From the IMG/VR virus record IMGVR_UViG_2778261179_000021, positions 1 through 35,334 of that record: a stretch of DNA of 35,334 nt. The stretch is one strand, 5' to 3'. Shown here piece by piece: positions 1-33,882 of this stretch. The stretch is from a virus (taxonomy: Duplodnaviria; Heunggongvirae; Uroviricota; Caudoviricetes). Numbering within the stretch: position 1 is the stretch's first letter; every line of letters starts with the position of its first letter. The notes below the pieces were generated by a model. It searched no databases, was not told the origin of the DNA, and saw only the letters and a list, made by a program, of their open reading frames with translations. A program made the translations under genes and the position numbers.

Positions 1-21
1 ATGCGAGGGACAGTCGAAATT

Positions 22-351
22 ATGCGTTATCCCGTCACTCTTACACCCGCGCCGGAAGGCGGTTATATGGTTTCTTTTGTGGATATCCCTGAAGCGTTGA
101 CGCAGGGCGAAACTGTCGCTGAAGCGATGGAAGCGGCAAAAGATGCTTTACTGACCGCATTTGATTTTTATTTTGAAGATAACGAGCTTATCCCTTTACC
201 TTCGCCATTAAATAGTCATGATCACTTTATTGAAGTGCCTTTGAGCGTCGCCTCTAAGGTATTGCTGTTAAATGCTTTTTTACAGTCAGAAATCACTCAG
301 CAAGAGTTAGCCAGGCGAATTGGCAACCCGAATGTAGTCAACCCAAAATAA
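22..351 (+). CDS. hicB: HicB-family antitoxin-like protein; C-terminal HTH appears truncated
   Basis: GAGGGA RBS about 10 nt upstream of ATG at 22 (track ORF 1..351 starts at an in-frame ATG at the window edge). N-terminus MRYPVTLTPAPEGGYMVSF...QGETVAEAMEAAKDAL fits the HicB antitoxin fold. The C-terminal ...SEITQQELARRIG looks like the first helices of an XRE-type HTH, then 8 unrelated residues and a stop. Confidence 0.6.
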   Translation: MRYPVTLTPAPEGGYMVSFVDIPEALTQGETVAEAMEAAKDALLTAFDFYFEDNELIPLPSPLNSHDHFIEVPLSVASKVLLLNAFLQSEITQQELARRIGNPNVVNPK

Positions 352-2887: not shown

Positions 2888-2963
2888 CTGGCTTTAAAGA
2901 ATAATGTAGCATTATGTTCATTATAACCTCATCTTTGTTGTGCAAACCTAACCTAAACTTACT

Positions 2964-2990
2964 AGGGACTCTTCGGAGTCCCTTTTTTAT
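2964..2990 (+). terminator. intrinsic terminator (AGGGACTC-TTCG-GAGTCCCT plus T6)
   Basis: 8-bp stem, TTCG loop, TTTTTT run; abuts the stop codon of the convergent minus-strand gene. Confidence 0.65.
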
Positions 2991-3928
2991 TGGCAGTAAG
3001 AAAAGTTAGTACCGTACATTTCATCATGAAGCATTGCAGCATTGCGTTTCTGTTCTTCTTCCTCGTCTACCGCATCACTAGAAAAATGAGATTTGCCCTT
3101 AAAAGAACGAAGCAATTGCAGTGCAGCCATCGGATCACGCATCACATCGATTTTCACTTCTACTTCATCATTTGCGGCCTCATCAGCCGCATTTTCAACT
3201 ACTGCCACCGGAGCAACTTCTTTAGCTTTCAGTTCTTCAATTTCAGCTTTCTGGGCTTCGATAATCTGGTCTTTTTCTTCCAGTGCAGCTTTCAGTTCTG
3301 CGATCTGTGCTTCCAGTGCAGCAAAGCGATCTTCTACAACAGGAGAAACAGCATTAACCTGTGCTTCCAGTTCCAGAAATGCTTCGCAAGATTCAATACG
3401 TTCTTTCTCTTCACCTTCATAAGCAACCAGTTCTACAACTTCTTTTTCGGTAGCGTGGCTGTTAAAGAATACAGCAAAGTAAGGATTGCCGGATTTAGTG
3501 AAGTTCAGTTTAGCTTTTCCGGTAACTTCTTTACGACGACCGAAGGTGATCTGGCAATCAGCGGTATCCTGAAAATCCATGTTAGGAGCGGAAACGATAG
3601 CAGTATCACCAGCAATCACCAGGTGGAACAGTTCAGAAGAGTTCTTAACGGTAAAGGTAACGATGTGGTCTACTGCAACGTCTTTAGCAGGTTTAACGCG
3701 GTCGATTGCTTTACGAATGCCGTTAGGCAGTTTACCGTCAACACCAAAGCCAGCCGCGATCAGTGCTTCACGATGTGCTTTAAAGCCAGCGAAAGCGGAT
3801 TTCTGCTGCGCAAAGGAAACATGAGCAACAACTTTCGGCTGAATCTTCTTGTTTGCTTCGGTGCCAAATTTGATAACTGCTTTAGCGTTGGTTACTTCGT
3901 TAGTGAAAAAGTTAGCGGAAAATAACAT
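2987..3928 (-). CDS. hypothetical protein with central coiled coil and acidic C-terminal region (313 aa)
   Basis: ATG at 3928 with GGAG RBS; long ORF; heptad-like region ...FAALEAQIAELKAALEEKDQIIEAQKAEIEELKAKE...; second gene of a leftward operon downstream of LexA-like boxes. Confidence 0.7.
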   Translation of the reverse strand: MLFSANFFTNEVTNAKAVIKFGTEANKKIQPKVVAHVSFAQQKSAFAGFKAHREALIAAGFGVDGKLPNGIRKAIDRVKPAKDVAVDHIVTFTVKNSSELFHLVIAGDTAIVSAPNMDFQDTADCQITFGRRKEVTGKAKLNFTKSGNPYFAVFFNSHATEKEVVELVAYEGEEKERIESCEAFLELEAQVNAVSPVVEDRFAALEAQIAELKAALEEKDQIIEAQKAEIEELKAKEVAPVAVVENAADEAANDEVEVKIDVMRDPMAALQLLRSFKGKSHFSSDAVDEEEEQKRNAAMLHDEMYGTNFSYCQ

Positions 3929-3970
3929 TATAAATACTCCTGTGGAAAGTTAGTTTTAATTGTTCATCGC

Positions 3971-4004
3971 AAAAGCCCCCTTGTTGCCGCAAGGGGGCTT
4001 TTTT
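3971..4004. terminator. bidirectional intrinsic terminator
   Basis: 9-bp perfect stem GCCCCCTTG/CAAGGGGGC flanked by AAAA on the left and TTTTTT on the right. Confidence 0.6.
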
Positions 4005-4042
4005 ATTTTTAAAGCCATCATATAATTCTCAGTCAAAGTTGA

Positions 4043-4222
4043 TTACCAAACGGTAGCTTCAATCTTCACTTTAATGTCATATCGTTTTAGCAGTTTTCTA
4101 AAATCAGAGGGGTCAATCCCTTCTTCCTTCAAAACCGCCAGCTTGTCACCCTGCATCGCTTCAAAATAACGTTTAGCAATCGGGAGTAATACTTCTCGTG
4201 TGAATCGTACAGGTTTAGCCAT
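4043..4222 (-). CDS. small HTH-module protein (59 aa), paralog of the 7412..7645 and 7675..8280 proteins
   Basis: Internal ATG at 4222 preceded by GAGGGA RBS (track ORF starts further upstream at 4282); motif PVRFTREV...EEGIDPSDFRKLLKRYDIKV...IEATVW is shared with the 77-aa protein (RFTKEQ...HGISIAQFYKNMKKLDIKF...IVEATGF). Confidence 0.55.
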   Translation of the reverse strand: MAKPVRFTREVLLPIAKRYFEAMQGDKLAVLKEEGIDPSDFRKLLKRYDIKVKIEATVW

Positions 4223-4320
4223 TTTTAATCCCTCATTGTTAGGTTTAAAAAATCTTAAAAAAGAGCTTTTCGCTCTGAACAATTCTATTTATAAAATGTT
4301 TTTCGAAAAACCCTGTAAAA

Positions 4321-4342
4321 CCACTGTATATCCGATCAGTGG
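4321..4342. promoter_or_regulatory. LexA-box-like inverted repeat (CCACTGTATATCCGATCAGTGG)
   Basis: CTG-N10-CAG with a consensus-like left half ACTGTATAT; lies immediately upstream of a candidate minus-strand -35 (TTTACA) for the 4222 gene. Confidence 0.4.
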
Positions 4343-4405
4343 GAGCACGAATTGCTAAAGAGAAGATTAATAATTAATCAATCCGTACAATATTCAACCG
4401 AAAAA

Positions 4406-4444
4406 GCACTGTATATCTAACCAGTGCTGTATGAGTTAACAGTG
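4406..4444. promoter_or_regulatory. two overlapping LexA-box-like sites, including TGCTGTATGAGTTAACAGTG (CTGT-N8-ACAG)
   Basis: 4406..4427 GCACTGTATATCTAACCAGTGC; 4425..4444 matches the SOS-box core CTGT-N8-ACAG with the left half CTGTATGAG as in the E. coli recA box. Confidence 0.5.
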
Positions 4445-4580
4445 AGTCAGGAGATTTTCAGAAGTGAACAATCATTTTTCATGCATGTATTTATACACGA
4501 AAAAATCATGCTTATCATCTATATGGGGATTGTTTGGAAAATTTCAACCCTTACCAGTGATAAAAAGTATAAAATAGTTC

Positions 4581-4594
4581 TTGACACATGTCAA
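4581..4594. promoter_or_regulatory. operator-like imperfect palindrome TTGACACATGTCAA overlapping a -35-like TTGACA
   Basis: Outer arms TTGAC/GTCAA perfectly symmetric; TTGACA hexamer at 4581..4586. Confidence 0.3.
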
Positions 4595-4790
4595 CAAACA
4601 TGATCTAAGCGAGAGGTGACTATCAAAATTTTTGTTTGAAAATGGTAGATTAGGATTATCAACCTTTATAATCTATTATGGCACGGAGACCTTTTGATGA
4701 TTCCTTTTAAATCATTAGATTACGCCACTTTTTGGTGATTTTTTGGTTAAATAATATACAATAATTTTCTATCAAAATATTTGATGGGAA

Positions 4791-4986
4791 TTGCCCCCGA
4801 AATTCTGAATTTTTGCCCCCGAACAAAATCCCAAGATTCTACTATCCTATTTTTGCCCCTGAAACCTACTATTTTTGCCCCTGAAATTCTGGGAAACAGT
4901 GATTTTGCCCCTCATTTTTGCCCCTGAAATGCCAATAATTGCCCCTGAAAATCTAATTTTTGCCCCTGAAATTTTCCCCCGAAAAG
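4791..4986 (+). repeat. iteron array: about 9 direct copies of TTTTTGCCCCTGAAA
   Basis: Cores at about 4793, 4815, 4855, 4877, 4907 (degenerate), 4920, 4941, 4962, 4976 (degenerate), all in the same orientation, with spacings of mostly 21-22 bp or multiples; inside a 1.4-kb region lacking credible ORFs. Confidence 0.8.
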
Positions 4987-5118
4987 GATTGGTGAGAAAA
5001 ACTCTTTATAAAACATTAACTTGGGTGGGGGTAAAGGCGGGGGATTCGGCGTGCATAGATATTATATAACACATTCGCTACGCTCATGTGTAAAACCAAA
5101 AATAACCAAAAAGATATT

Positions 5119-5138
5119 AGGAGGGCTTTGCCCGACTG
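5119..5138 (+). repeat. 20-bp direct repeat copy 1 (AGGAGGGCTTTGCCCGACTG)
   Basis: Matches 5508..5527 at 19 of 20 positions; contains internal GGGC...GCCC dyad. Confidence 0.75.
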
Positions 5139-5507
5139 CGCGAAGCGCTAACCAATTACTTCTAGTAACAACTAATTTAAACTAGATGATACTAGATGGT
5201 CTTAGAAGGAATTAACTAGTTTGCTCGCTCGCTTCGCTCACTCTCAAACGTCTGCGACGCCACTGCGTGGCATCGAGAATCACTTTTGAAAGGATTTTCT
5301 TAGAAAGGGATTTAATACTAGTTACTAACTGATTCTAGTAAACGAACGAAGTGAGTAACAATCACTTTCTAGAAAGGTATTGGTATCCCTTCGGGATTGC
5401 AACCTTCGGTTGCTAAATTGCTTCCTGATTATTATTTCTCCAAAAGAAAGATTCTTATATTCTAAAGATACTTCTTCGTTTTGATGATGATTTAATCAAA
5501 ACTATGA

Positions 5508-5527
5508 AGGAGGGCTATGCCCGACTG
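5508..5527 (+). repeat. 20-bp direct repeat copy 2 (AGGAGGGCTATGCCCGACTG)
   Basis: Matches 5119..5138 at 19 of 20 positions; 389 bp downstream of copy 1. Confidence 0.75.
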
Positions 5528-5612
5528 AATACAATCACCTTTCATAATAACAAGAATTTTCTCTTTATAAATAATATTAGATTGATTCACTTTCTTTTAG
5601 AGGATTTCCACT

Positions 5613-6080
5613 ATGAACCATAAAATGACTACCACTACTCCTTTCATCCTGTTAGGTTTTGATGCTGATAGCTTCCACAATGACAAGTTAATGAAGATGT
5701 TCCGTGAACGTGGTTATAACATCCTTTTCAATTCCGATGAATCTCATTTCTCTAGTGCATGGTATGCCTTCCACCGTGATAAGAAGCCGACCATTGTTGT
5801 TAACGTCTTCACCGATGAAGAACGCTTAAAGTACCAGAATCTACCAGCAATTATTGTTCGTGATGATCTTCCGTTTGAAGTCCGTTCCGGTGACATTGAC
5901 CTGGGTAGCTTCGTTACTGTCTATGAACTGGATGAAGCAATGTTTAACTACGGTAAAGAAACCGCTCAGGAAGCCCAAGAACACGATGAAGAGGATGAGG
6001 AAAACGAAGACTACGCACCAATCTGTTTCTCTTCTCAGAATGGCTTCTACGGTTACGATGAAGGCTTAGATATGCTGTAA
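5613..6080 (+). CDS. acidic hypothetical early protein (155 aa)
   Basis: AGAGGA RBS; ORF rich in D/E with an acidic C-terminal stretch EAQEHDEEDEENEDY; first plus-strand gene after the non-coding hub. Confidence 0.65.
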   Translation: MNHKMTTTTPFILLGFDADSFHNDKLMKMFRERGYNILFNSDESHFSSAWYAFHRDKKPTIVVNVFTDEERLKYQNLPAIIVRDDLPFEVRSGDIDLGSFVTVYELDEAMFNYGKETAQEAQEHDEEDEENEDYAPICFSSQNGFYGYDEGLDML

Positions 6081-6115
6081 GTTAGGTCAACCCTTTGGCG
6101 TCTTGTCAAGGGGTA

Positions 6116-6143
6116 TTGACAAAATTTTCTGACTTTTTATGAT
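6116..6143 (+). promoter_or_regulatory. sigma70-type promoter (TTGACA-16 nt-TATGAT)
   Basis: Consensus -35 TTGACA at 6116..6121 and -10 TATGAT at 6138..6143 with a 16-nt spacer, upstream of the 6202 and 6441 genes. Confidence 0.55.
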
Positions 6144-6201
6144 TATCGCACTTGACAACTTTGAACCTATTTGACCTAGATTTGTAAAGAGGATGTTAAT
6201 T

Positions 6202-6440: not shown

Positions 6441-7271
6441 ATGAATACTGTTACTACTATGAATACTGCTGTTAAAACTGCTTCCGTGTCTCTGGTTGTT
6501 GATAACACCAAACCGCTGACCATGTCTACCCGTCAGATTGCTGAATTGACCGGAAAGAATCATAAGGATGTTATGCGTGATTTTCGTCGCATGATTGATT
6601 CTCTTGAAAAAGGAAGCGAATTAGCCGGGCGCAATTTTGCGCTGGGGTATTTTGTAGAATCTTCATATTTTGATAAGAATAATCAATCTCGCCCGATGTA
6701 TGAACTGGACGAAGATCTCTGTAATACTCTGGTTATGGGATACGATGCACCGCTTCGCTTCAAAATTGCTAAAGAATGGCGTTTGATGAAAGAAGGGAAA
6801 GCTAATGTTCCGGTTAATCCATATGAACACTTTGAAGAAACAGACTGGATCGAACTGGCGTTAAAGAAAACTCGCGAAAACAAACAACTGATTGAACTTC
6901 ATGTTCGTAAGTCTGTAGATAGCCATTCAATGACGCGTCTGTTAGGCGCTAAAAAGGGCGCTACGAAGGTTAAAGAAGCACTGACGGCCTTGCGTACTGC
7001 TGGATACATTGAGCGCGTCTATGATGAAAATAACAAGCCGTGTGGGTATGTTGCTAATGATTCCGCTTTACCGTTTTGCAGCATGAACGCTCACTATCAG
7101 CTTTCTTTTACTGTTGATGTGCTTCCGGTGTTGGTTGAATTTGGTGTTCTGGAAGAAGAACAAAAAGCAACTCTGAATCTTCCTAAGCCGAACAACACTA
7201 TTCTGATTCAAAATAAAGCGGCTGAACGTCTCCGTCAGAATGTTGGATCACTGGAAGTCTTCGGACTGTAA
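6441..7271 (+). CDS. Rha-family phage regulatory protein (antirepressor-like)
   Basis: N-terminal motif MSTRQIAELTGKNHKDVMRDFRRMIDSLEK is characteristic of the phage Rha domain; 276 aa; followed by an intrinsic terminator. Confidence 0.7.
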   Translation: MNTVTTMNTAVKTASVSLVVDNTKPLTMSTRQIAELTGKNHKDVMRDFRRMIDSLEKGSELAGRNFALGYFVESSYFDKNNQSRPMYELDEDLCNTLVMGYDAPLRFKIAKEWRLMKEGKANVPVNPYEHFEETDWIELALKKTRENKQLIELHVRKSVDSHSMTRLLGAKKGATKVKEALTALRTAGYIERVYDENNKPCGYVANDSALPFCSMNAHYQLSFTVDVLPVLVEFGVLEEEQKATLNLPKPNNTILIQNKAAERLRQNVGSLEVFGL

Positions 7272-7411: not shown

Positions 7412-7645
7412 TCAAAAACCTGTTGCTTCTACGATCTGACCATCACCGATCTGAACATAGAATTTAATGTCTAACTTCTTCATATTCTTATAGAATTGGG
7501 CGATTGAGATCCCATGTTCACTAAGAATCTGTTCTTTCGCTTCCTTACCACGATCCGCTGTATAGTAAGCGTAGGCAATATCAGCCATCTGTTCTTTAGT
7601 AAATCGTGCCGGACGACCGCGAGTAGCTTTAGTAGTCATAGTCAT
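7412..7645 (-). CDS. small HTH-module protein (77 aa), paralog of the 4043..4222 protein
   Basis: ATG at 7645 with GGAGAAA RBS (track ORF begins at an upstream GTG); TRGRPARFTKEQMADIA...HGISIAQFYKNMKKLDIKF resembles psq/resolvase-type HTH seen in phage DNA-binding proteins and some small terminases. Confidence 0.6.
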   Translation of the reverse strand: MTMTTKATRGRPARFTKEQMADIAYAYYTADRGKEAKEQILSEHGISIAQFYKNMKKLDIKFYVQIGDGQIVEATGF

Positions 7646-7674: not shown

Positions 7675-8280
7675 TTATTTAGAGGACTTAGATTTTATAG
7701 GAAAAAGTTCTCCATCGTCAACTGACATAAAGAACTCGACCTTAATCTCGTACTTCTTCAACCGTGAATAATATGTACCCCGACTTATATCAACCTTGCG
7801 AAGCACTTCAAAGAAGGATTTAGGATCGTTGTAATAGTGGCTGTACTTCACGTTAGCGAGTTCTACAAACAATTCCCTTGTATCACCATATCCTTTCTTA
7901 AAAGCTATGTTACGTGGCATTGTAATAGCCATATTATCCCTTGTCTGCTTCAACACTTCTCTGATCGGCTTCCACTGCAAACGATAGATAGGACCGTCAT
8001 CAATGCGATAATAACGCTTGATATCAAAATCAAACCAATCTCGGACTCTCCGAAACTCTGTATGTGATGTTCTATGCTTCTTAAAGAAGTTGTGAACGTC
8101 TCTATAGCCATTATCACGGTAAAATTCTATTAAAATCTCTTTCGCTTCCTCACGGCTAAACCCAGATGTTGTGTAATCGGTCTTTAAGTGCTTATGTTTT
8201 ACTGGCAAACGATATTCATGATCGGTACAACAAGACAAGGCTAATTCTACTTCATCTCTTTGTTGCTGATTAATTAGCAT
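7675..8280 (-). CDS. protein with two tandem HTH-like modules related to the small HTH paralogs (201 aa)
   Basis: ATG at 8280 with AAGGGGG RBS; internal duplication (…FFKKHRTSHTEFRRVRDWFDFDIKRYY… and …FFEVLRKVDISRGTYYSRLKKYEIKVEFF); transcribed divergently from the large terminase gene. Confidence 0.65.
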   Translation of the reverse strand: MLINQQQRDEVELALSCCTDHEYRLPVKHKHLKTDYTTSGFSREEAKEILIEFYRDNGYRDVHNFFKKHRTSHTEFRRVRDWFDFDIKRYYRIDDGPIYRLQWKPIREVLKQTRDNMAITMPRNIAFKKGYGDTRELFVELANVKYSHYYNDPKSFFEVLRKVDISRGTYYSRLKKYEIKVEFFMSVDDGELFPIKSKSSK

Positions 8281-16219: not shown

Positions 16220-19200
16220 ATGCAGTCGATCCAATTTAAACGCACACAGACGGCTGGTAAAAAACCAACGCCGGAACAATTATCACAGGGTGAGATCGCC
16301 TTACAACTGGCGGACCATGTGATTTACACCAAAGACAAAAATAATAATGTAGTTCAAATTAGTGTTTCTCCAGAAAAACACGCTGAACTGAATACGAAAG
16401 TAGACAATAACAAAACTAGCACTGACCGTGTTATTGCAGCAAATAAGAAAGAAGCTGCTGATAATCTGGCTAGTGCTAAAGCTGAACTTAATCAGACTAT
16501 CACTTCTACCCGTGATACCCTCAATGCTTCAATCACTGCTGGCGATACCGCAGCCAACAAACGAATTGATGCTTTGACTACCACAGTAGGTAACAATAAA
16601 ACCGAAGCGGCTAACGCTCTGGCGGCTGCTAAGACTGAACTGAATCAGACTATTACTTCAACCCGCGATACTATCAACGCGACAATTAACAAGAACAAGA
16701 CAGATATTAATGCGCGAGTTGATCAGACGAATACCAACGTTACCAACTTAACGAATACTGTCGCAGCAAATAAATCAGCAATAGAAAAGACGGTAGCGGA
16801 TAATAAGAAAGATGCGGACACGAAGATCACCAATCTTACTAGTACGGTCTCTGCGAATAAGACAGCCATTGAAAGAACTGTTGCAAATAACAAGGCCAGT
16901 GCCGATGCCGCAATTGCCGCAGCTAATCAGCGAATTGATTCGATTGAAGGTAGTGCCGATGCTGCTTACATCAAGAAGAATACCAACACTTACCATCACG
17001 GGTATTTGTTAAGCAAGACCGCTAACTATTTTGATGATGCTGGCGCACGTAACCTTGATTATTTTGGTGCGTTTCGTCCGAACAATGCCGAAGGTTGGGG
17101 TAACTTAATCCTTAACATTCCTCATTCTGGCGGTAAAGCCCACGGTCGCGGTTTTGAGTTCCACTATGGGTCTAGCTCATCTCAAGTTAAAACCTATGGC
17201 TTTGATAAAGATGGTAATAAGCGATTCAGCTACCGCATGTATCATGAAGGTGATAAGCCGACTCCTACTGAATTGGGTGTGTATAGTAAAGCCGAAGTTG
17301 ATCAGATGTTCACTAAACCCGTTCATATGTCAACTGGTGAAAATGCGGCTGGTTACTTTAAACTGGCAACGGCAACAATTCCACAAGGGGGTCGAGGCTT
17401 TTTCATCCGTATTTTCGGTGGAAATGGTTATAACGTTAATAGTCCTGATCAGTGTGATATTGTAGAAATTGTTATCCGTTCCGGTAATGGAAATCCGAAA
17501 GGTGTAAACGTTGTTGCTTATCGTCGTAATACTAATAACGAGTTTGAAACCTTTGCGGTTAATACTTCGGGTGATAACTATGATATCTATGTGAAATATC
17601 GCAAATACACCGATAAAGTTACTGTAGAGTACGGTAAAAGTGCTGATGTGACTTTAAATGTGTATGATACACCTGAATTAACTCTCGTTAAGCCGTCTAC
17701 TGGTGTTAACGAAGGTCGTGTTATTACCTTGTTTAATACTGAAAATAAACGCGGTACTCTGTCCTTTGATAATAACTCACAAGCAACTTACGATATTGTG
17801 AGTTTGAGCGCCGCACAGGACCGTAACAAAAAATATCTGCGTAAATTCCGTAGTCAAGCGGTAGAGACCATCTGGCATGAAGTTGTTAACGGTAGTTCAT
17901 ATCGTTTAGCTACTGGTGTTACCGATTCTACTGATGTTTTTCAGATTGATTCTACTGGCTCTGTTGCTGGTCCATATAAAGGCAACGTGACTACTGGACG
18001 TATGGAATTAAACGGTGGTAGTAATGCATTAACTTTGCGTCGTCCTGCTGGACAATCTAACCATATTACATTCCAAGATAACCGTAGTGGTAATATTACC
18101 CGTCAAGGCTGGATCGGTTATGGTGACGCTGATACTAACGCATTGCAGATATATAGCGATGTAGGAAGTAACAAATTTGCATTAGAAACTAACGGTCAGA
18201 TCTCTCTGAATGTTGGCGCAACAAAAATTGTTTACTCTAACGGACAATATTATTCCGCTAACTCAGATGCATTCCGTATGATTTACGGTAATTACGGTGC
18301 ATTCTGGCGTAATGATGGCACTAAAGTATATTTGTTATCTACTGCTGAAAATGATCGTTTTGGTGGCTGGAACGGCAACCGTCCGTTCATTTACGATTTA
18401 ACTAACGGTAAAGTTACTTTAGGTGGTGATGGTAACGAAGGTGCATTAGTTCTTGAAAGAGATAGCCGTGCTGCTCGCTTTAGTAATAACGTATTCTTAG
18501 AGAAAGGTTTGCTTACGTTCTCTGCTGGTGGAAATCAGTCGATGGATTCTTTCACGATTAACCATTGGGGGAATAGTAATGCCGATCGATATAACGTTTT
18601 GCAATTCCAGGACACTAGCGGAACTCACTTTACCACTGAACGTAACGGATCTGGCGGTTTGCTTGCTCATTTCCGAGGGGATTTAACTACCGAAGGAAAA
18701 TTAACGTGGGGTAAGGGTACAGCTACTTCTAGTTTCAATATTCGTGCATGGGGCGCTGATGCTCGTAAACAAGTATTTGAATGTGCTGATGAAAGCGGTT
18801 GGCATTGGTATACCCAACGTCCGGGCGGTCCGGGTACTACGGCAATTGAGTTTGCTATCAACGGTACTGTTAAGCCTCAAGCAATTCACACTGGCGGCAA
18901 TATTCTTTTGAACGGTGCTGATATTGAATTTCGTCGCACTGGTAATAAGCATATCTGGTTTAGAGATCCAACTGGATTAGAACTAGGTTTGATGTATTCC
19001 GATGATGCTGGTGTTATTCGCTTCCGTGGTCAGAAACAAGCCCAGACGTGGAAACTTGCGGATAAGATGATCCAGTTGGAATCTGGTACTGTAACCGGAG
19101 GCGGTAATGGCCTGATTCGTGGTGAAGTTGCTGGCGGTAGTTGGGCTAGCTGGCGTGACCGTGCTGCTGGCCTTATGGTTGGGTGTCCTCGATCAACCGA

Positions 19201-19738
19201 TTCCGCTCATAACATCTGGAAAGCGACACATTGGGGTAAATATCACATTGCAGCAATGGGTGTGCATGTTCCTAGTGGTACTATCGGTAACGCTCTTGTG
19301 CGTCTCCATGTTCATGATACTAACTTTGACTTTAACGCTGCTGGTGATTTTACCGCAGGTCGCAACGGTAGCTTTAACGATGTTTACATTCGCTCTGACT
19401 CTCGTCTGAAAATTAACAAGGAAGAATTACAGGACGGCGCATTAGAGAAAGTAAACTCCCTGAAAGTCTACACCTACGATAAAGTTAAATCTCTTTCCGA
19501 TGACACAGTGATTAAACGCGAAGTAGGCATTATTGCTCAGGATCTGGAAAAAGTATTGCCGGAAGCGGTAGGTATTCAATCCACAGAAGATCCAGAACAT
19601 CCAGAAGCAATCAAGACTATTTCTAACTCTGCTGTCAATGCTTTAATCATCAAGGCTATGCAGGAAATGGACGCCAAATATAAAGCGCAGATCGAAGCAT
19701 TACATAAAGAGATTGCCGAACTGAAAGCAACTAAATAA
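16220..19738 (+). CDS. long tail fibre with C-terminal intramolecular chaperone (peptidase S74-like) domain
   Basis: 1172 aa; N-terminal about 51-aa tandem repeats (…AKAELNQTITSTRDT…); C-terminal about 115 aa …IRSDSRLKINKEEL…VGIIAQDLEKVLPEAV…NALIIKAMQEMDAKYKAQIEALHKEIAELK match the self-cleaving chaperone domain of endosialidase/T5-type L-shaped fibres. Confidence 0.8.
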   Translation: MQSIQFKRTQTAGKKPTPEQLSQGEIALQLADHVIYTKDKNNNVVQISVSPEKHAELNTKVDNNKTSTDRVIAANKKEAADNLASAKAELNQTITSTRDTLNASITAGDTAANKRIDALTTTVGNNKTEAANALAAAKTELNQTITSTRDTINATINKNKTDINARVDQTNTNVTNLTNTVAANKSAIEKTVADNKKDADTKITNLTSTVSANKTAIERTVANNKASADAAIAAANQRIDSIEGSADAAYIKKNTNTYHHGYLLSKTANYFDDAGARNLDYFGAFRPNNAEGWGNLILNIPHSGGKAHGRGFEFHYGSSSSQVKTYGFDKDGNKRFSYRMYHEGDKPTPTELGVYSKAEVDQMFTKPVHMSTGENAAGYFKLATATIPQGGRGFFIRIFGGNGYNVNSPDQCDIVEIVIRSGNGNPKGVNVVAYRRNTNNEFETFAVNTSGDNYDIYVKYRKYTDKVTVEYGKSADVTLNVYDTPELTLVKPSTGVNEGRVITLFNTENKRGTLSFDNNSQATYDIVSLSAAQDRNKKYLRKFRSQAVETIWHEVVNGSSYRLATGVTDSTDVFQIDSTGSVAGPYKGNVTTGRMELNGGSNALTLRRPAGQSNHITFQDNRSGNITRQGWIGYGDADTNALQIYSDVGSNKFALETNGQISLNVGATKIVYSNGQYYSANSDAFRMIYGNYGAFWRNDGTKVYLLSTAENDRFGGWNGNRPFIYDLTNGKVTLGGDGNEGALVLERDSRAARFSNNVFLEKGLLTFSAGGNQSMDSFTINHWGNSNADRYNVLQFQDTSGTHFTTERNGSGGLLAHFRGDLTTEGKLTWGKGTATSSFNIRAWGADARKQVFECADESGWHWYTQRPGGPGTTAIEFAINGTVKPQAIHTGGNILLNGADIEFRRTGNKHIWFRDPTGLELGLMYSDDAGVIRFRGQKQAQTWKLADKMIQLESGTVTGGGNGLIRGEVAGGSWASWRDRAAGLMVGCPRSTDSAHNIWKATHWGKYHIAAMGVHVPSGTIGNALVRLHVHDTNFDFNAAGDFTAGRNGSFNDVYIRSDSRLKINKEELQDGALEKVNSLKVYTYDKVKSLSDDTVIKREVGIIAQDLEKVLPEAVGIQSTEDPEHPEAIKTISNSAVNALIIKAMQEMDAKYKAQIEALHKEIAELKATK
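16430..16930 (+). repeat. in-frame tandem repeats (about 153-nt unit) within the tail fibre shaft
   Basis: For example GCTAAAGCTGAACTTAATCAGACTATCACTTC at about 16475 versus GCTAAGACTGAACTGAATCAGACTATTACTTC at about 16628. Confidence 0.6.
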
Positions 19739-20436: not shown

Positions 20437-20943
20437 ATGGCGAATGTCGTTAATAAGCCTGGCTGGGTCGGGTCATCTGCTGTTTCTGTAACTGGTCAAC
20501 GATGGATGAGCGCAGCAATGAACGCATTAAAGGTTAGTCGCCCAGCTAACATGAGTGCGATGTGTGGTCGTGGTATGGATACGGTTGTAGCTACTGCTGC
20601 GTGGTCTACTTCATTGGGTAATAACTGGGGTGTAACTGCTTCAAACTATCCAGTAACTGACATGCGCGGTAAAGGATCTATGGAGAACCCCGAAAACGTG
20701 GGCGTAGGGCGTCTGATTGGCGTTATCGTTGGTCAATTCAATGGCGGTACTCCTACTATGGCTGTATATCTCCAGAACGGTAGAGCGGGGAATATAACCG
20801 TTAATTTGGGTGGTGCTGCTGTCACTGTTCTTTATAACAGTATGCAAAGTGGTTTTCATTACTATTGGTTAAGCAATCCTCCGGCTGCTTTCCTTACCAA
20901 CATTAAGAAGACTGGCACTAAGCAGACTTTGAAAATCTCTTAA
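20437..20943 (+). CDS. hypothetical virion-associated protein (beta-rich, 168 aa)
   Basis: GGAG RBS; ORF between the major tail gene and the G chaperone; no recognisable motif. Confidence 0.45.
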   Translation: MANVVNKPGWVGSSAVSVTGQRWMSAAMNALKVSRPANMSAMCGRGMDTVVATAAWSTSLGNNWGVTASNYPVTDMRGKGSMENPENVGVGRLIGVIVGQFNGGTPTMAVYLQNGRAGNITVNLGGAAVTVLYNSMQSGFHYYWLSNPPAAFLTNIKKTGTKQTLKIS

Positions 20944-32153: not shown

Positions 32154-33833
32154 TTAAATTCCAAATTCTTGTAATGGACCTGGTATTTCTTCTTCTGGTT
32201 TCCAGTTCTTATCTGTCAGCATGTCTAAACATGGATGCAGAACAAGCCCGTTACTCTCCAGAATCTGCCTATCATTGATAGTCTTCAAATCAACGAAGAT
32301 CCGGCCTTTCCTCGGTCCTCTTGAATTTTCTATTACAACTCTCTGGGTCTTGCCATCGATGTATTCCAGTACAAACAAGTTTTTGTACTTGTCAATCCTG
32401 CTACACCCGATCCGTTTTAGAGCTTGCTTAATCTTAAACCGGACCTTAATGCGATCCTCGTTGTAAACATCTTCTAAATCAAATTCTACGAGCTTCTCCC
32501 AGCCTTGAGAGTCAACAGAATACATTTCCTCTTCTGCCATCTTAATTTGATTGTAGAGTGTTTCACGCTCGCTATTGAGGGTAGTAATCTGATCGGCTAG
32601 CTCCTTCGTTGCTCCTGTCATAGCAGAAAGGGTAATCAGGTTATCAATCTTGCGTGATATTTCATCAATCTGTACTTTCAAAGCCGGAACCGGATTAGCC
32701 TTATCTTCAGCAATCCAGATTTTATCAGCCAGCAATTGCAATACAGCTTTCTCTAATTGGTCGCCGCGAAAACTCCAGTTTGTATGCACACATTCAATAC
32801 GACTAGAGCGCATTGCATCGCATGAATAACGATATTGGTTAGGCCGTCTGTTTGTTCCTTTCACCTTAACCATAGCGGAACCGCAATGTTCACATTTCAA
32901 TAGACCAACACCACTAAGCAAGGGAATAGGTTTAACTTCTTCTTTGTCTCCAAAGTTACATGCTCTAACACCAATGCTTTTCTTAAGGTGATAAAACTCA
33001 GCGTCATCTAGCACACGAGGATAATAATCCTTTAACTCATACTTAACGCCATCTACAGAGATTTCCTTGATACCAATCAAAGCGCGGGTATGGAACAACC
33101 TTTCAATCATTGCCCGTGACCAGTTTGAATGCCTCTTGTGACTTGCGGCTGGTGGTGGTGTGTATGTCGCGTTAAGGTGATCCAGTATCTCGGCGGTTGA
33201 CCGTCCATTCCTGCGTAATTCCACAACTTCCTGAACAATAGGGAAGAAGACCGGATGAGGAAGCACATAACCAGATGTGGTATCAGTCCACCACATATTC
33301 TTTCCAATTTCCTCGATTGCAACAGCCGGATTTTGTGGATTTTCTTGATGAGCTTTAATCTTAATCAGTGCGCTTGAGTTAGTACGATTGCGCTTAGTCT
33401 GGCTTTCCTCATTACCACGGATGAATAAAAGGATGGAGAACATCAGGTCCATCGGGTTAGCGGTAACAGTATCCAGCGAGTAGATCTTGTTATCCATGCC
33501 AGTAACAATGGTTATCCCCCTACGGATGATTGAAAGGAATAACTCCTGCGCACTGACAATATCGGCACGGGATAAACGGTCCAAGTTTTCGATGAATAGC
33601 CAGCTACCAACAGGAACGGATCTACCTATTGCATCAAGGAAACGAGATAGCGCCCCTGTTTTGGAGTTAGCACCCTTAAACGCAGATACACCCAGATCCT
33701 GATAATCATTTACCAGTTCAAGGTCATACTTTACCGCAATCTCTCTAGCCATCCTGATTTGTCGTTCATAACTCGAACCATCATTCTGACGCATAGACGA
33801 GAAGCGAATATACGAATACAGTTTAGTTTTCAT
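32154..33833 (-). CDS. large serine recombinase (probable integrase)
   Basis: 559 aa from ATG 33833 (track start is an upstream TTG); N-terminal resolvase-type catalytic domain with YIRFSSMRQ (serine nucleophile) and …ENLDRLSR…; C-terminal extension with zinc-ribbon-like cysteines (CEHCGS…YRYSCD) and a coiled coil. Confidence 0.9.
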   Translation of the reverse strand: MKTKLYSYIRFSSMRQNDGSSYERQIRMAREIAVKYDLELVNDYQDLGVSAFKGANSKTGALSRFLDAIGRSVPVGSWLFIENLDRLSRADIVSAQELFLSIIRRGITIVTGMDNKIYSLDTVTANPMDLMFSILLFIRGNEESQTKRNRTNSSALIKIKAHQENPQNPAVAIEEIGKNMWWTDTTSGYVLPHPVFFPIVQEVVELRRNGRSTAEILDHLNATYTPPPAASHKRHSNWSRAMIERLFHTRALIGIKEISVDGVKYELKDYYPRVLDDAEFYHLKKSIGVRACNFGDKEEVKPIPLLSGVGLLKCEHCGSAMVKVKGTNRRPNQYRYSCDAMRSSRIECVHTNWSFRGDQLEKAVLQLLADKIWIAEDKANPVPALKVQIDEISRKIDNLITLSAMTGATKELADQITTLNSERETLYNQIKMAEEEMYSVDSQGWEKLVEFDLEDVYNEDRIKVRFKIKQALKRIGCSRIDKYKNLFVLEYIDGKTQRVVIENSRGPRKGRIFVDLKTINDRQILESNGLVLHPCLDMLTDKNWKPEEEIPGPLQEFGI

Positions 33834-33846
33834 ACCATTTCCAAAC

Positions 33847-33882
33847 AAAAACGCCCCTACCGCGTATTATAACGATAGGGGC
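33847..33882 (-). terminator. putative intrinsic terminator between the secreted-protein gene and the recombinase
   Basis: GCCCCTA ... TAGGGGC 7-bp stem with 16-nt loop, preceded on the + strand by AAAAA. Confidence 0.35.

Follow-up and report, generated by a model that had tools for sequence, protein, structure and literature searches.

Introduction

That prophage induction can be coupled to LexA, the SOS repressor of the host, is already well known, and the principle is not new here. In CTXphi, LexA acts together with RstR, the phage's repressor, and cleavage of LexA is needed for induction according to the summary given in PMC3323433, which cites Quinones 2005 and Kimsey & Waldor 2009. Induction of the 186, N15 and Gifsy prophages is under direct or indirect LexA control (PMC3121763), while GIL01, a Bacillus thuringiensis tectivirus without a classical CI repressor, is kept in lysogeny by LexA occupying a number of SOS boxes at an early promoter (PMC4551915). 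Here we analyze a stretch of 35,334 bp, IMG/VR record IMGVR_UViG_2778261179_000021 (the window), which holds approximately one complete, hitherto undescribed temperate siphovirus prophage. Its control region contains a cluster of three predicted LexA boxes, 100–220 nt upstream of a leftward early operon of two genes, p59 and p313. The second of these encodes a putative iteron-binding protein that may be a replication initiator. We propose, with a confidence only a little better than even, that LexA gates this operon and thereby forms an SOS-coupled switch. The elements on which the argument draws are as follows.

2987–3928, minus strand: p313, 313 codons; the product has an N-terminal specificity domain, a coiled coil at residues 182–236, an acidic region and a small C-terminal domain
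3971–4002, reported on the plus strand: 14-bp G+C-rich hairpin between p59 and p313, its minus-strand side followed by UUUU only
4043–4222, minus strand: p59, 59 codons; Fis/NtrC-like helix-turn-helix with the motif GI..S.F.KLLK.Y.I
4256–4276 (stem 4276–4262), minus strand: intrinsic terminator or attenuator from a terminator scan, AGAGC-GAAAA-GCUCU followed by U6, 34 nt upstream of the p59 start codon
4291–4319, minus strand: weak proximal promoter-like element, TTTACA-17-TTTTAT, score 4.5, estimated start ~4284
4322–4341: predicted LexA box 1, CACTGTATATCCGATCAGTG, 14.0 bits, third-ranking in the window; almost no variation among 12 related E. coli loci
4344–4383: most conserved block, AGCACGAATTGCTAAAGAGAAGATTAATAATTAATCAAT, separating box 1 from boxes 2/3; hardly varies among 13 loci
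4407–4426: predicted LexA box 2, CACTGTATATCTAACCAGTG, 20.0 bits, rank 1 in the window
4425–4444: predicted LexA box 3, TGCTGTATGAGTTAACAGTG, canonical CTGT-N8-ACAG, 16.0 bits, rank 2 in the window
4566–4594, minus strand: strong sigma-70-like promoter P_L, TTGACA-17-TATACT, 11/12 consensus match, score 14.4, estimated start ~4559
4620–4790: A+T-rich stretch, a possible unwinding region; G+C 0.22–0.38, lowest at 4620–4679 and 4710–4799
4791–4984, plus strand: eight direct iterons, TTGCCCC(T/C)GAAA, with spacings of 22, 40, 22, 43, 21, 21 and 13 bp

The arrangement resembles that at the CTXphi promoter PrstA which, as described in the cited account, has host LexA in an intergenic control region gating an operon that begins with a replication gene (PMC3323433). 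CTXphi differs in being filamentous and in having a rolling-circle initiator, the co-repressor RstR and a single LexA site, whereas the element described here belongs to a tailed siphovirus and combines an iteron-type region with three boxes, a strong upstream promoter and a leader terminator, and no phage co-repressor was found in it. In CTXphi the −35 hexamer has the LexA site just upstream of it, and box 1 of the window occupies about −38 to −57 relative to the proximal element. GIL01 is set apart by its Gram-positive host, a different LexA motif, a linear plasmid prophage and a demonstrated co-repressor, gp7; a co-repressor for the present locus is only conjectural, and sister prophages lack LexA boxes. 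No phage partner of LexA comparable to RstR or gp7 was identified in the prophage, and its two strongest promoters share a TTGACA/TGTCAA dyad.

The Tum operon of 186, AntC of N15 and GfoA-GftA of the Gifsy prophages likewise have an SOS box before a small prophage operon and bring about induction in which no repressor is cleaved (PMC3121763). In the Gifsy modules the box is also accompanied by a terminator-like palindrome, which is upstream of the box there and downstream of it here. However, the products of those operons are antirepressors, often accompanied by DinI homologues, and the target of these antirepressors is a CI-type repressor whose gene lies elsewhere. An earlier reading of this DNA from its letters and ORFs (open reading frames) alone (the sequence-only reading) had drawn the analogy with such antirepressor modules, which is not supported: neither protein of the operon matches antirepressor families, no Tum, DinI or Ant homologue was found in it, one of its products is a predicted iteron-binding protein, and the prophage yielded no CI-type target. 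Of the two features tested for membership of that class, an antirepressor or DinI-like product and a recognizable non-cleavable CI-type target, neither was found. By analogy, it would fit better with CTXphi and GIL01.

Of interest here are the wide spread of a prophage lineage with no recognizable repressor, the placement of SOS boxes before an operon for a specificity-matched iteron-binding protein of an orphan family, and the sister phages in which the LexA cassette has been swapped. If confirmed, the locus would offer a simple experimental system for host-factor-driven control of lysogeny and for the modular rewiring of induction signals, and would assign a function to an orphan protein family. 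It also bears on the question of which prophages of gut E. coli would respond to SOS-inducing antibiotics by induction.

Three predicted LexA boxes

The sequence-only reading had pointed to three dyads, and all three are present: CCACTGTATATCCGATCAGTGG at 4321–4342, GCACTGTATATCTAACCAGTGC at 4406–4427 and TGCTGTATGAGTTAACAGTG at 4425–4444. When the window was scored with an approximate, symmetrised LexA matrix built on 26 known E. coli SOS boxes, these sites took ranks 1–3 of all 35,334 bp. The training boxes score 12.9–24.3 bits on the same matrix. Each of the three sites carries the SOS-box motif TACTGTATATATATACAGTA with its CTG-N10-CAG core, and each scores within the range of proven sites; the core occurs eight times in the window, three of these being the boxes themselves. 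Boxes 2 and 3 overlap by 2 bp, with centers 18 bp apart. The left half of box 3, CTGTATGAG, is shared with the recA box.

Significance was assessed with 500 dinucleotide-preserving shuffles of the window. Sites of at least 14 bits averaged 0.11 per shuffled window, compared with three observed, and none of the 500 shuffles held three such sites within 125 bp. Since the sites rank first to third and no shuffle reproduces their grouping, the cluster is not due to chance. Two further LexA-like 20-mers occur at 3457–3476 (12.6 bits) and 20823–20842 (12.9 bits). The first is inside p313 and conserved along with that gene, the second is missing from the closest relative, and both are probably chance or coding-constrained matches that are not functional.

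Conservation of the boxes among relatives

The cassette that carries these boxes is found in 31 complete E. coli genomes, and the window was aligned with 12 of those loci to give 13 sequences. Over its whole length, the stretch 4283–4600 is ~90% identical. The share of variable columns is 1 of 18 for the CTG/CAG cores, 13 of 30 for the box centers, 7 of 10 for the box edges and 72 of 260 elsewhere in the stretch. Nearly fixed cores with varying centers are the pattern expected of LexA contacts, and the predicted contact positions are under evolutionary constraint. In box 2, CTG and CAG are fixed around centers that read TGTATA, TGTGTA, TGTGCA or TGCATA, and the score stays at 14–20 bits in all relatives. 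Box 3 is kept by most relatives at 12.7–19.1 bits; in one locus (L012) its CTG has become CCG, and the score falls under the 11-bit reporting cutoff. Conservation of the palindrome stops at the limits of the LexA 20-mer, which disfavors a longer, phage-specific operator.

Six Salmonella loci possess a different cassette with little shared sequence, yet they have a single near-consensus box, TACTGTATGAATATACAGTA, which scores 21–25 bits and lies ~285 nt upstream of the 59-residue gene. We regard this box of independent sequence as the strongest comparative evidence that the sites are LexA operators. Two or three boxes are present in 19 of 33 loci, one box in six and none in eight, so that 25 of 33 have at least one, and LexA control appears to be recurrent yet dispensable in the lineage. 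Judged from these sequence comparisons, the three sites are very probably LexA operators.

Promoter-like elements and terminator of the control region

The boxes are situated in a non-coding region of 1.39 kb between the p59 start codon (4222) and a 155-residue gene (5613), and the length of this region is similar in all relatives. The nearest ORFs are those of the leftward operon, whereas the nearest rightward ORF is ~1170 nt away. No minus-strand promoter reaches the listing cutoff of 8 between p59 and p313, and for this reason p313 is probably co-transcribed with p59.

The sequence-only reading had a minus-strand promoter of the two genes abutting the nearest site, and this stands in a weakened form. 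Both of its hexamers exist (TTTACA at 4319–4314 and TATAAA at 4293–4288), but they are 20 bp apart; a 17-bp spacer instead gives TTTTAT as the −10 hexamer and the score of 4.5. Box 1 is 2 bp upstream of this −35 hexamer. Among the 13 loci both hexamers of the 17-bp form are invariant, and the spacer between them varies in sequence while its length is constant. The −35 hexamer aligns with TTAACA in the other cassette types, so its position is common to them. We infer that 4291–4319 could serve as a promoter.

The same reading had described a simpler control region than the one we find, missing both a strong upstream promoter and a conserved terminator before p59. The former, P_L, has the best promoter score in the window, where only three sites in 35 kb reach 12. 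It is conserved in all cassette types, and its −35 hexamer sits within the palindrome TTGACAcaTGTCAA. P_L points toward the boxes, all three of which fall at +115 to +237 of its leader, with boxes 2/3 at +115 to +152. The terminator lies between the boxes and p59, so leftward transcripts must read through it. Every cassette type retains it, and its stem shows compensatory changes in other cassettes (AGAGCG-GAAA-CGCUCU in Salmonella, GAGCG-GUUAA-CGCUC in the E. coli locus L014), and beyond this terminator no convincing covariation indicative of conserved RNA structure was seen in the P_L leader.

Colicin promoters and the lexA gene itself have tandem SOS boxes that immediately follow or overlap a good −10 hexamer. 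Boxes 2 and 3 resemble these in being adjacent or overlapping, and could bind two dimers. However, no conserved −10 hexamer adjoins them on either strand, and the arrangement is not of the colicin type. Between box 1 and this pair lies the most conserved block of the region (4344–4383), and its core, AGCAC-N5-TG(C/T)TAAAG, recurs beside the operator arrays of L014 and Salmonella.

The window has only two TTGACA/TGTCAA dyads, at 4581–4594 and 6104–6121, and they overlap the −35 hexamers of its two strongest promoter-like sites. These are P_L (4594–4566, minus strand) and a rightward TTGACA-16-TATGAT at 6116–6149, upstream of the 51-residue and Rha genes. The shared dyad suggests a common operator for an as yet unnamed repressor. 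Two small ORFs were also considered as products of this region, one of 37 residues with a GTG start (after AGGAG at 4450) and one of 23 residues on the minus strand. Their frames are broken by 1–2-nt indels and by stops in relatives, and the idea of a LexA-controlled type I toxin was therefore dropped.

The proteins of the operon and the iterons

The p59 and p313 ORFs are present and syntenic in all relatives, and neither protein has a hit in Pfam, PHROG or NCBIfam. The description of the 59-residue protein as a helix-turn-helix protein is borne out by its motif, which we judge typical of Fis/NtrC-type domains, though the database matches (weak ones to Fis and HTH_Tnp_1) are not significant. 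The central coiled coil ascribed to the 313-residue protein is seen in its structure model as a predicted long helix at residues 182–236.

The iteron motif has 15 matches in the window against 3.1 expected; eight of these are clustered at 4791–4984, all on the plus strand. They are phased at ~21–22 bp or multiples thereof, and a 21-nt inverted repeat flanks the array on both sides. Parts of 4620–4800, between P_L and the iterons, have a G+C content of 0.22–0.27. The region thus has the at least three clustered direct repeats, about two helical turns apart and beside A+T-rich DNA, by which an iteron origin is recognized; DnaA boxes are not enriched in it.

Six variants of the p313 N-terminus match six iteron cores in 33 of 33 loci:

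MLFSANFF: core TTGCCCCTGAA
MKNSKRITFNLF: core ACCTACACTA
MKKNRITFNLF: core CCTGCACTAA
MKNVKIWFYDN: core CCCCAAGATTC
MKNVVVKFYDN: core CCCCCGGATTCC
MKQNNFSITVY: core TCCCCG...

The p59 alleles and the LexA and TGTTA cassettes, which lie physically between p313 and the iterons, have been reshuffled independently. Because this intervening DNA is shuffled, the match between protein and repeats reflects function rather than linkage. From this covariation, we consider p313 to be an iteron-specific DNA-binding protein of an orphan family, and probably an origin-binding replication initiator or organizer.

Like lambda O/ori, P1 RepA/oriR and the iteron plasmids, the locus has same-orientation repeats at about two helical turns with an A+T-rich neighbor, and their specificity is matched to a nearby product that has an N-terminal DNA-binding part and a separate C-terminal part. 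Unlike those systems, p313 has no similarity to known initiators, its gene is ~860 bp from the iterons and transcribed away from them, and its codon usage is very highly adapted. The fraction of optimal codons (Fop) in p313 is 0.76, the highest in the prophage, compared to 0.71 for the capsid gene and 0.75 for the tail tube gene. Fop is also high, 0.63–0.66, in the 155-residue and 51-residue genes (5613–6080 region), and the 313-residue and 155-residue proteins both have very acidic C-terminal parts.

Proposed LexA control of the leftward operon and alternative explanations

In the mechanism that we favor, an undamaged lysogen would have LexA on all three sites, box 1 as well as the tandem boxes 2/3. 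Its footprint on box 1 would cover part of the proximal −35 hexamer, while its presence on boxes 2/3 in the transcribed P_L leader, along with the terminator before p59, would keep the operon low. DNA damage would then lead to RecA-stimulated self-cleavage of LexA and to expression of the operon, and the appearance of the regulator and the iteron-binding protein would take the prophage toward replication and lytic growth. Of the SOS-controlled switch that the sequence-only reading had envisaged, the LexA-like operators (by matrix rank, shuffles, core conservation and the Salmonella box) and the leftward position of the nearest ORFs are upheld; the antirepressor part is not. Control of the leftward operon appears about twice as likely as rightward control, because the nearest ORFs lie that way, the proximal promoter adjoins box 1 and P_L is strong.

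Several observations weigh against this mechanism. No box overlaps a strong promoter, and the neighbor of box 1 is the element scoring 4.5 with TTTTAT as its −10 hexamer. The P_L start precedes boxes 2/3 by more than 100 nt, and LexA is unusual as a roadblock. In the Salmonella cassette the strong promoter lies downstream of the box, so a P_L roadblock cannot be the common mechanism. The terminator also stands between the boxes and p59. The LexA matrix is approximate, and conservation of the boxes is in itself weak evidence, since all of 4283–4600 is ~90% conserved. Eight of the 33 loci have no box (E. coli L014, Providencia L015 and six IMG/VR contigs), and LexA control is therefore not essential to this phage type. 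Finally, p313 matched no known initiator by family, by PDB sequence or by fold. Its Fop of 0.76 points to a protein level far above the usual needs of an initiator; an immunity-type repressor, or some other DNA-binding protein of high abundance, is an alternative identity for it.

One alternative keeps the boxes as LexA operators but has them control a rightward transcript, which would run through the A+T-rich and iteron region and a long structured leader to the 155-residue, 51-residue and Rha genes, starting from TTCGCT-17-TAAAAT left of box 1 (start ~4304) or near TACAAT at 4386–4391. In this case transcription induced by SOS would activate the origin, or SOS would switch on the early genes to the right, and P_L, being convergent, would suffer interference. 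Each of the three cassette types does have a TATAAT-like plus-strand element just to the left of its operator array, and the variants of TACAAT keep T1, A2 and T6 in 12 of 13 loci. The Salmonella box overlaps a candidate −10 hexamer (TTGATT-18-TACTGT, score ~7), which is the classical LexA arrangement, and the plus-strand hairpins with UNCG loops at 5385–5415, whose stems show compensatory changes in relatives, suggest that a rightward RNA crosses the non-coding region. However, every candidate promoter in this direction is weak, with scores of at most 7.6, several relatives have lost the sixth-position T of TAAAAT, there is no ORF that way within 1.1 kb, and the strong rightward promoter is distant, at 6116–6149, past the 155-residue gene. 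We consider rightward control unlikely. A different role for the leftward operon is also conceivable, in which it is an immunity operon driven by P_L in lysogens, with p313 as the prophage repressor and the iterons as its operators, so that LexA would modulate the supply of repressor rather than trigger induction. Matched repressor-operator pairs that change from one mosaic relative to another typify phage immunity regions, and p313 and the iterons behave in this way. Codon adaptation in the prophage peaks in p313, and the slot downstream of p59 is filled by different genes among relatives, as is common for regions expressed in lysogeny. Against this, LexA repression of a repressor operon would raise repressor during SOS, contrary to the logic of induction. 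Eight same-orientation repeats phased at ~21–22 bp beside an A+T-rich stretch look like an origin, the iterons overlap neither of the two strong promoters, and those promoters share another dyad, TTGACA/TGTCAA. An immunity operon is, on balance, decidedly unlikely.

Two further explanations concern the identity of the boxes themselves. The sequence-only reading had allowed, as a fallback, that boxes 1 and 2 are operators for a phage protein; they would then (as CCACTG...CAGTGG and GCACTG...CAGTGC) bind a dimeric phage regulator, with only box 3 or none of the sites bound by LexA. The two share extended flanks of the form AAAA-C/G-CACTGTATATC, 84% identical over 25 nt and 85 bp apart, their right halves read TCAG and CCAG rather than ACAG, and the prophage has several small helix-turn-helix proteins with no assigned target. 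On the other hand, box 2 is the best LexA match of the window, and the E. coli dinB box, CACTGTATACTTTACCAGTG, has the same ends. The outer palindrome varies (CCAC/CAAC/CTAC and GTGG/GTAG/GAGG) while the single variable core column falls in box 3, conservation of the palindrome is limited to the LexA 20-mer, the p59, p155 (155-residue protein) and Rha alleles do not covary with the presence of the cassette, and a textbook box is present in this region in Salmonella relatives. That boxes 1 and 2 serve a phage protein is accordingly very improbable. A chance cluster without function in A+T-rich intergenic DNA might be entertained given that the region has a G+C content of only 0.28–0.38 and that LexA boxes are likewise A+T-rich, but the outcome of the 500 shuffles, the selective conservation of the cores and the independent box of the Salmonella cassette effectively refute it. 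LexA gating of the leftward operon remains the reading that we prefer.

Exchange of the control cassette

Sister prophages have five TGTTA direct repeats (ATGTTAAAATGTTATTCAGATGTTATCAGACGTGTTAAATGTGTTAAAC), four of them ~11 bp apart, in place of LexA box 1; the array is absent from the window. It is found in L014 (~3140–3190), in L016–L021 and in L024, L025, L029, L031, L033 and L034. This array resembles the direct-repeat site of phosphorylated ArcA, ArcA-P (PMC4173790). L014 also has a dyad, TTGATGTTTATTCAATCAA, where Salmonella has its LexA box. No tested allele of a phage gene covaries with the type of cassette.

A tentative and, in our estimation, doubtful extension of these observations is that at this locus the lineage does without a switch repressor of its own and instead reads global regulators of the host directly via exchangeable cassettes, with LexA reporting DNA damage, an ArcA-P-like site reporting redox state or oxygen, and Salmonella having both, all of them gating the p313 operon. 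If this were true, phages that are otherwise nearly identical would have their induction and replication tied to different stress signals of the host.

Distribution and other features of the prophage

In E. coli 266917_2 the same element interrupts the antitoxin gene hicB, which is cut into two pseudogene halves, and a large serine recombinase gene is located at the end of the element. The hicB insertion site corresponds to window positions 1–351 and ~35,300 (L001/L002), and hicA is left intact. Relatives with another recombinase allele are inserted in ycdX (E. coli STEC1575 and Salmonella).

The lineage is widespread. Among 5,426 complete E. coli genomes, at least 63 carry its control region, in every case on the chromosome, and relatives occur in Shigella, Salmonella and Providencia. 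A first protein search with the 313-residue protein returned only near-identical E. coli and Shigella entries, the search with the 59-residue protein returned six proteins, and scans of a genome-contig collection with p59 and TerL found no relatives. Neither a near-identity search of phage and plasmid collections with 2900–5100 nor a tblastn search of phages with the 313-residue protein gave a match. The portal protein is at most 37% identical to any phage record, and, if exchanged tail-fibre and moron genes are left aside, none of the sequenced phage isolates is close in DNA. Those exchanged genes, an LprI-like lipoprotein gene (584–1363) and the tail-fibre and Gp38-like adhesin genes (16220–19738 and 20437–20943), have 75–84% DNA identity to T-even phages of the RB49 group, which indicates exchange between a temperate siphovirus and virulent myoviruses.

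Other genes of the element include the following, along with an M15 endolysin and a lambda gpA-like large terminase, portal, capsid and siphovirus tail genes.

1722–2276: Nu1-like small terminase
6441–7271, strand opposite to the p59/p313 operon and 2 kb from it: Ant/Rha-like protein, the only one in the prophage
32154–33848, minus strand: serine recombinase

No scanned ORF of the 35-kb prophage was recognized as a CI/Cro/XRE or S24-type repressor, although one of unrecognizable sequence is possible, and none was recognized as a known replication protein.

The p59 domain has paralogs on the minus strand, one in an 86-residue protein (7412–7639) and two in a 201-residue protein (7675–8280), whose genes diverge from that of the large terminase. 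The p59-like domains form a phage-specific paralogous family. The p59 alleles fall into three classes of 47–100% identity, which covary neither with the recombinase or integration site nor with the cassette type. A role of p59 as a recombination directionality factor was rejected, given that 47%-identical alleles accompany the identical recombinase WP_000850652.1 at hicB and that near-identical alleles accompany a different integration site (ycdX) in Salmonella.

The plus strand of 5100–5560, and of 5385–5415 in particular, has many short G+C hairpins with UNCG-type loops, such as ATCCC-TTCG-GGAT and GCAACC-TTCG-GTTGC, and relatives have hairpins at the same places with other stems (CCAC-TTCG-TGG, GGACAC-TACG-TGTCC and GACGCTC-TAGG-GAGCGTC). 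These suggest that an RNA running rightward is structured here, or that the 155-residue gene has a long leader. No Rfam family passed the gathering thresholds, and relaxing E to 5 brought up noise only; immunity RNAs like those of P4 CI and P1 c4 were considered and not found. The element CTnTTTATAAA occurs three times in the same plus-strand orientation, at 4285–4296, 5002–5013 and 5561–5572. Its third copy, ~40 nt upstream of the 155-residue gene, is conserved in all cassette types, and the element may be a common promoter or binding element.

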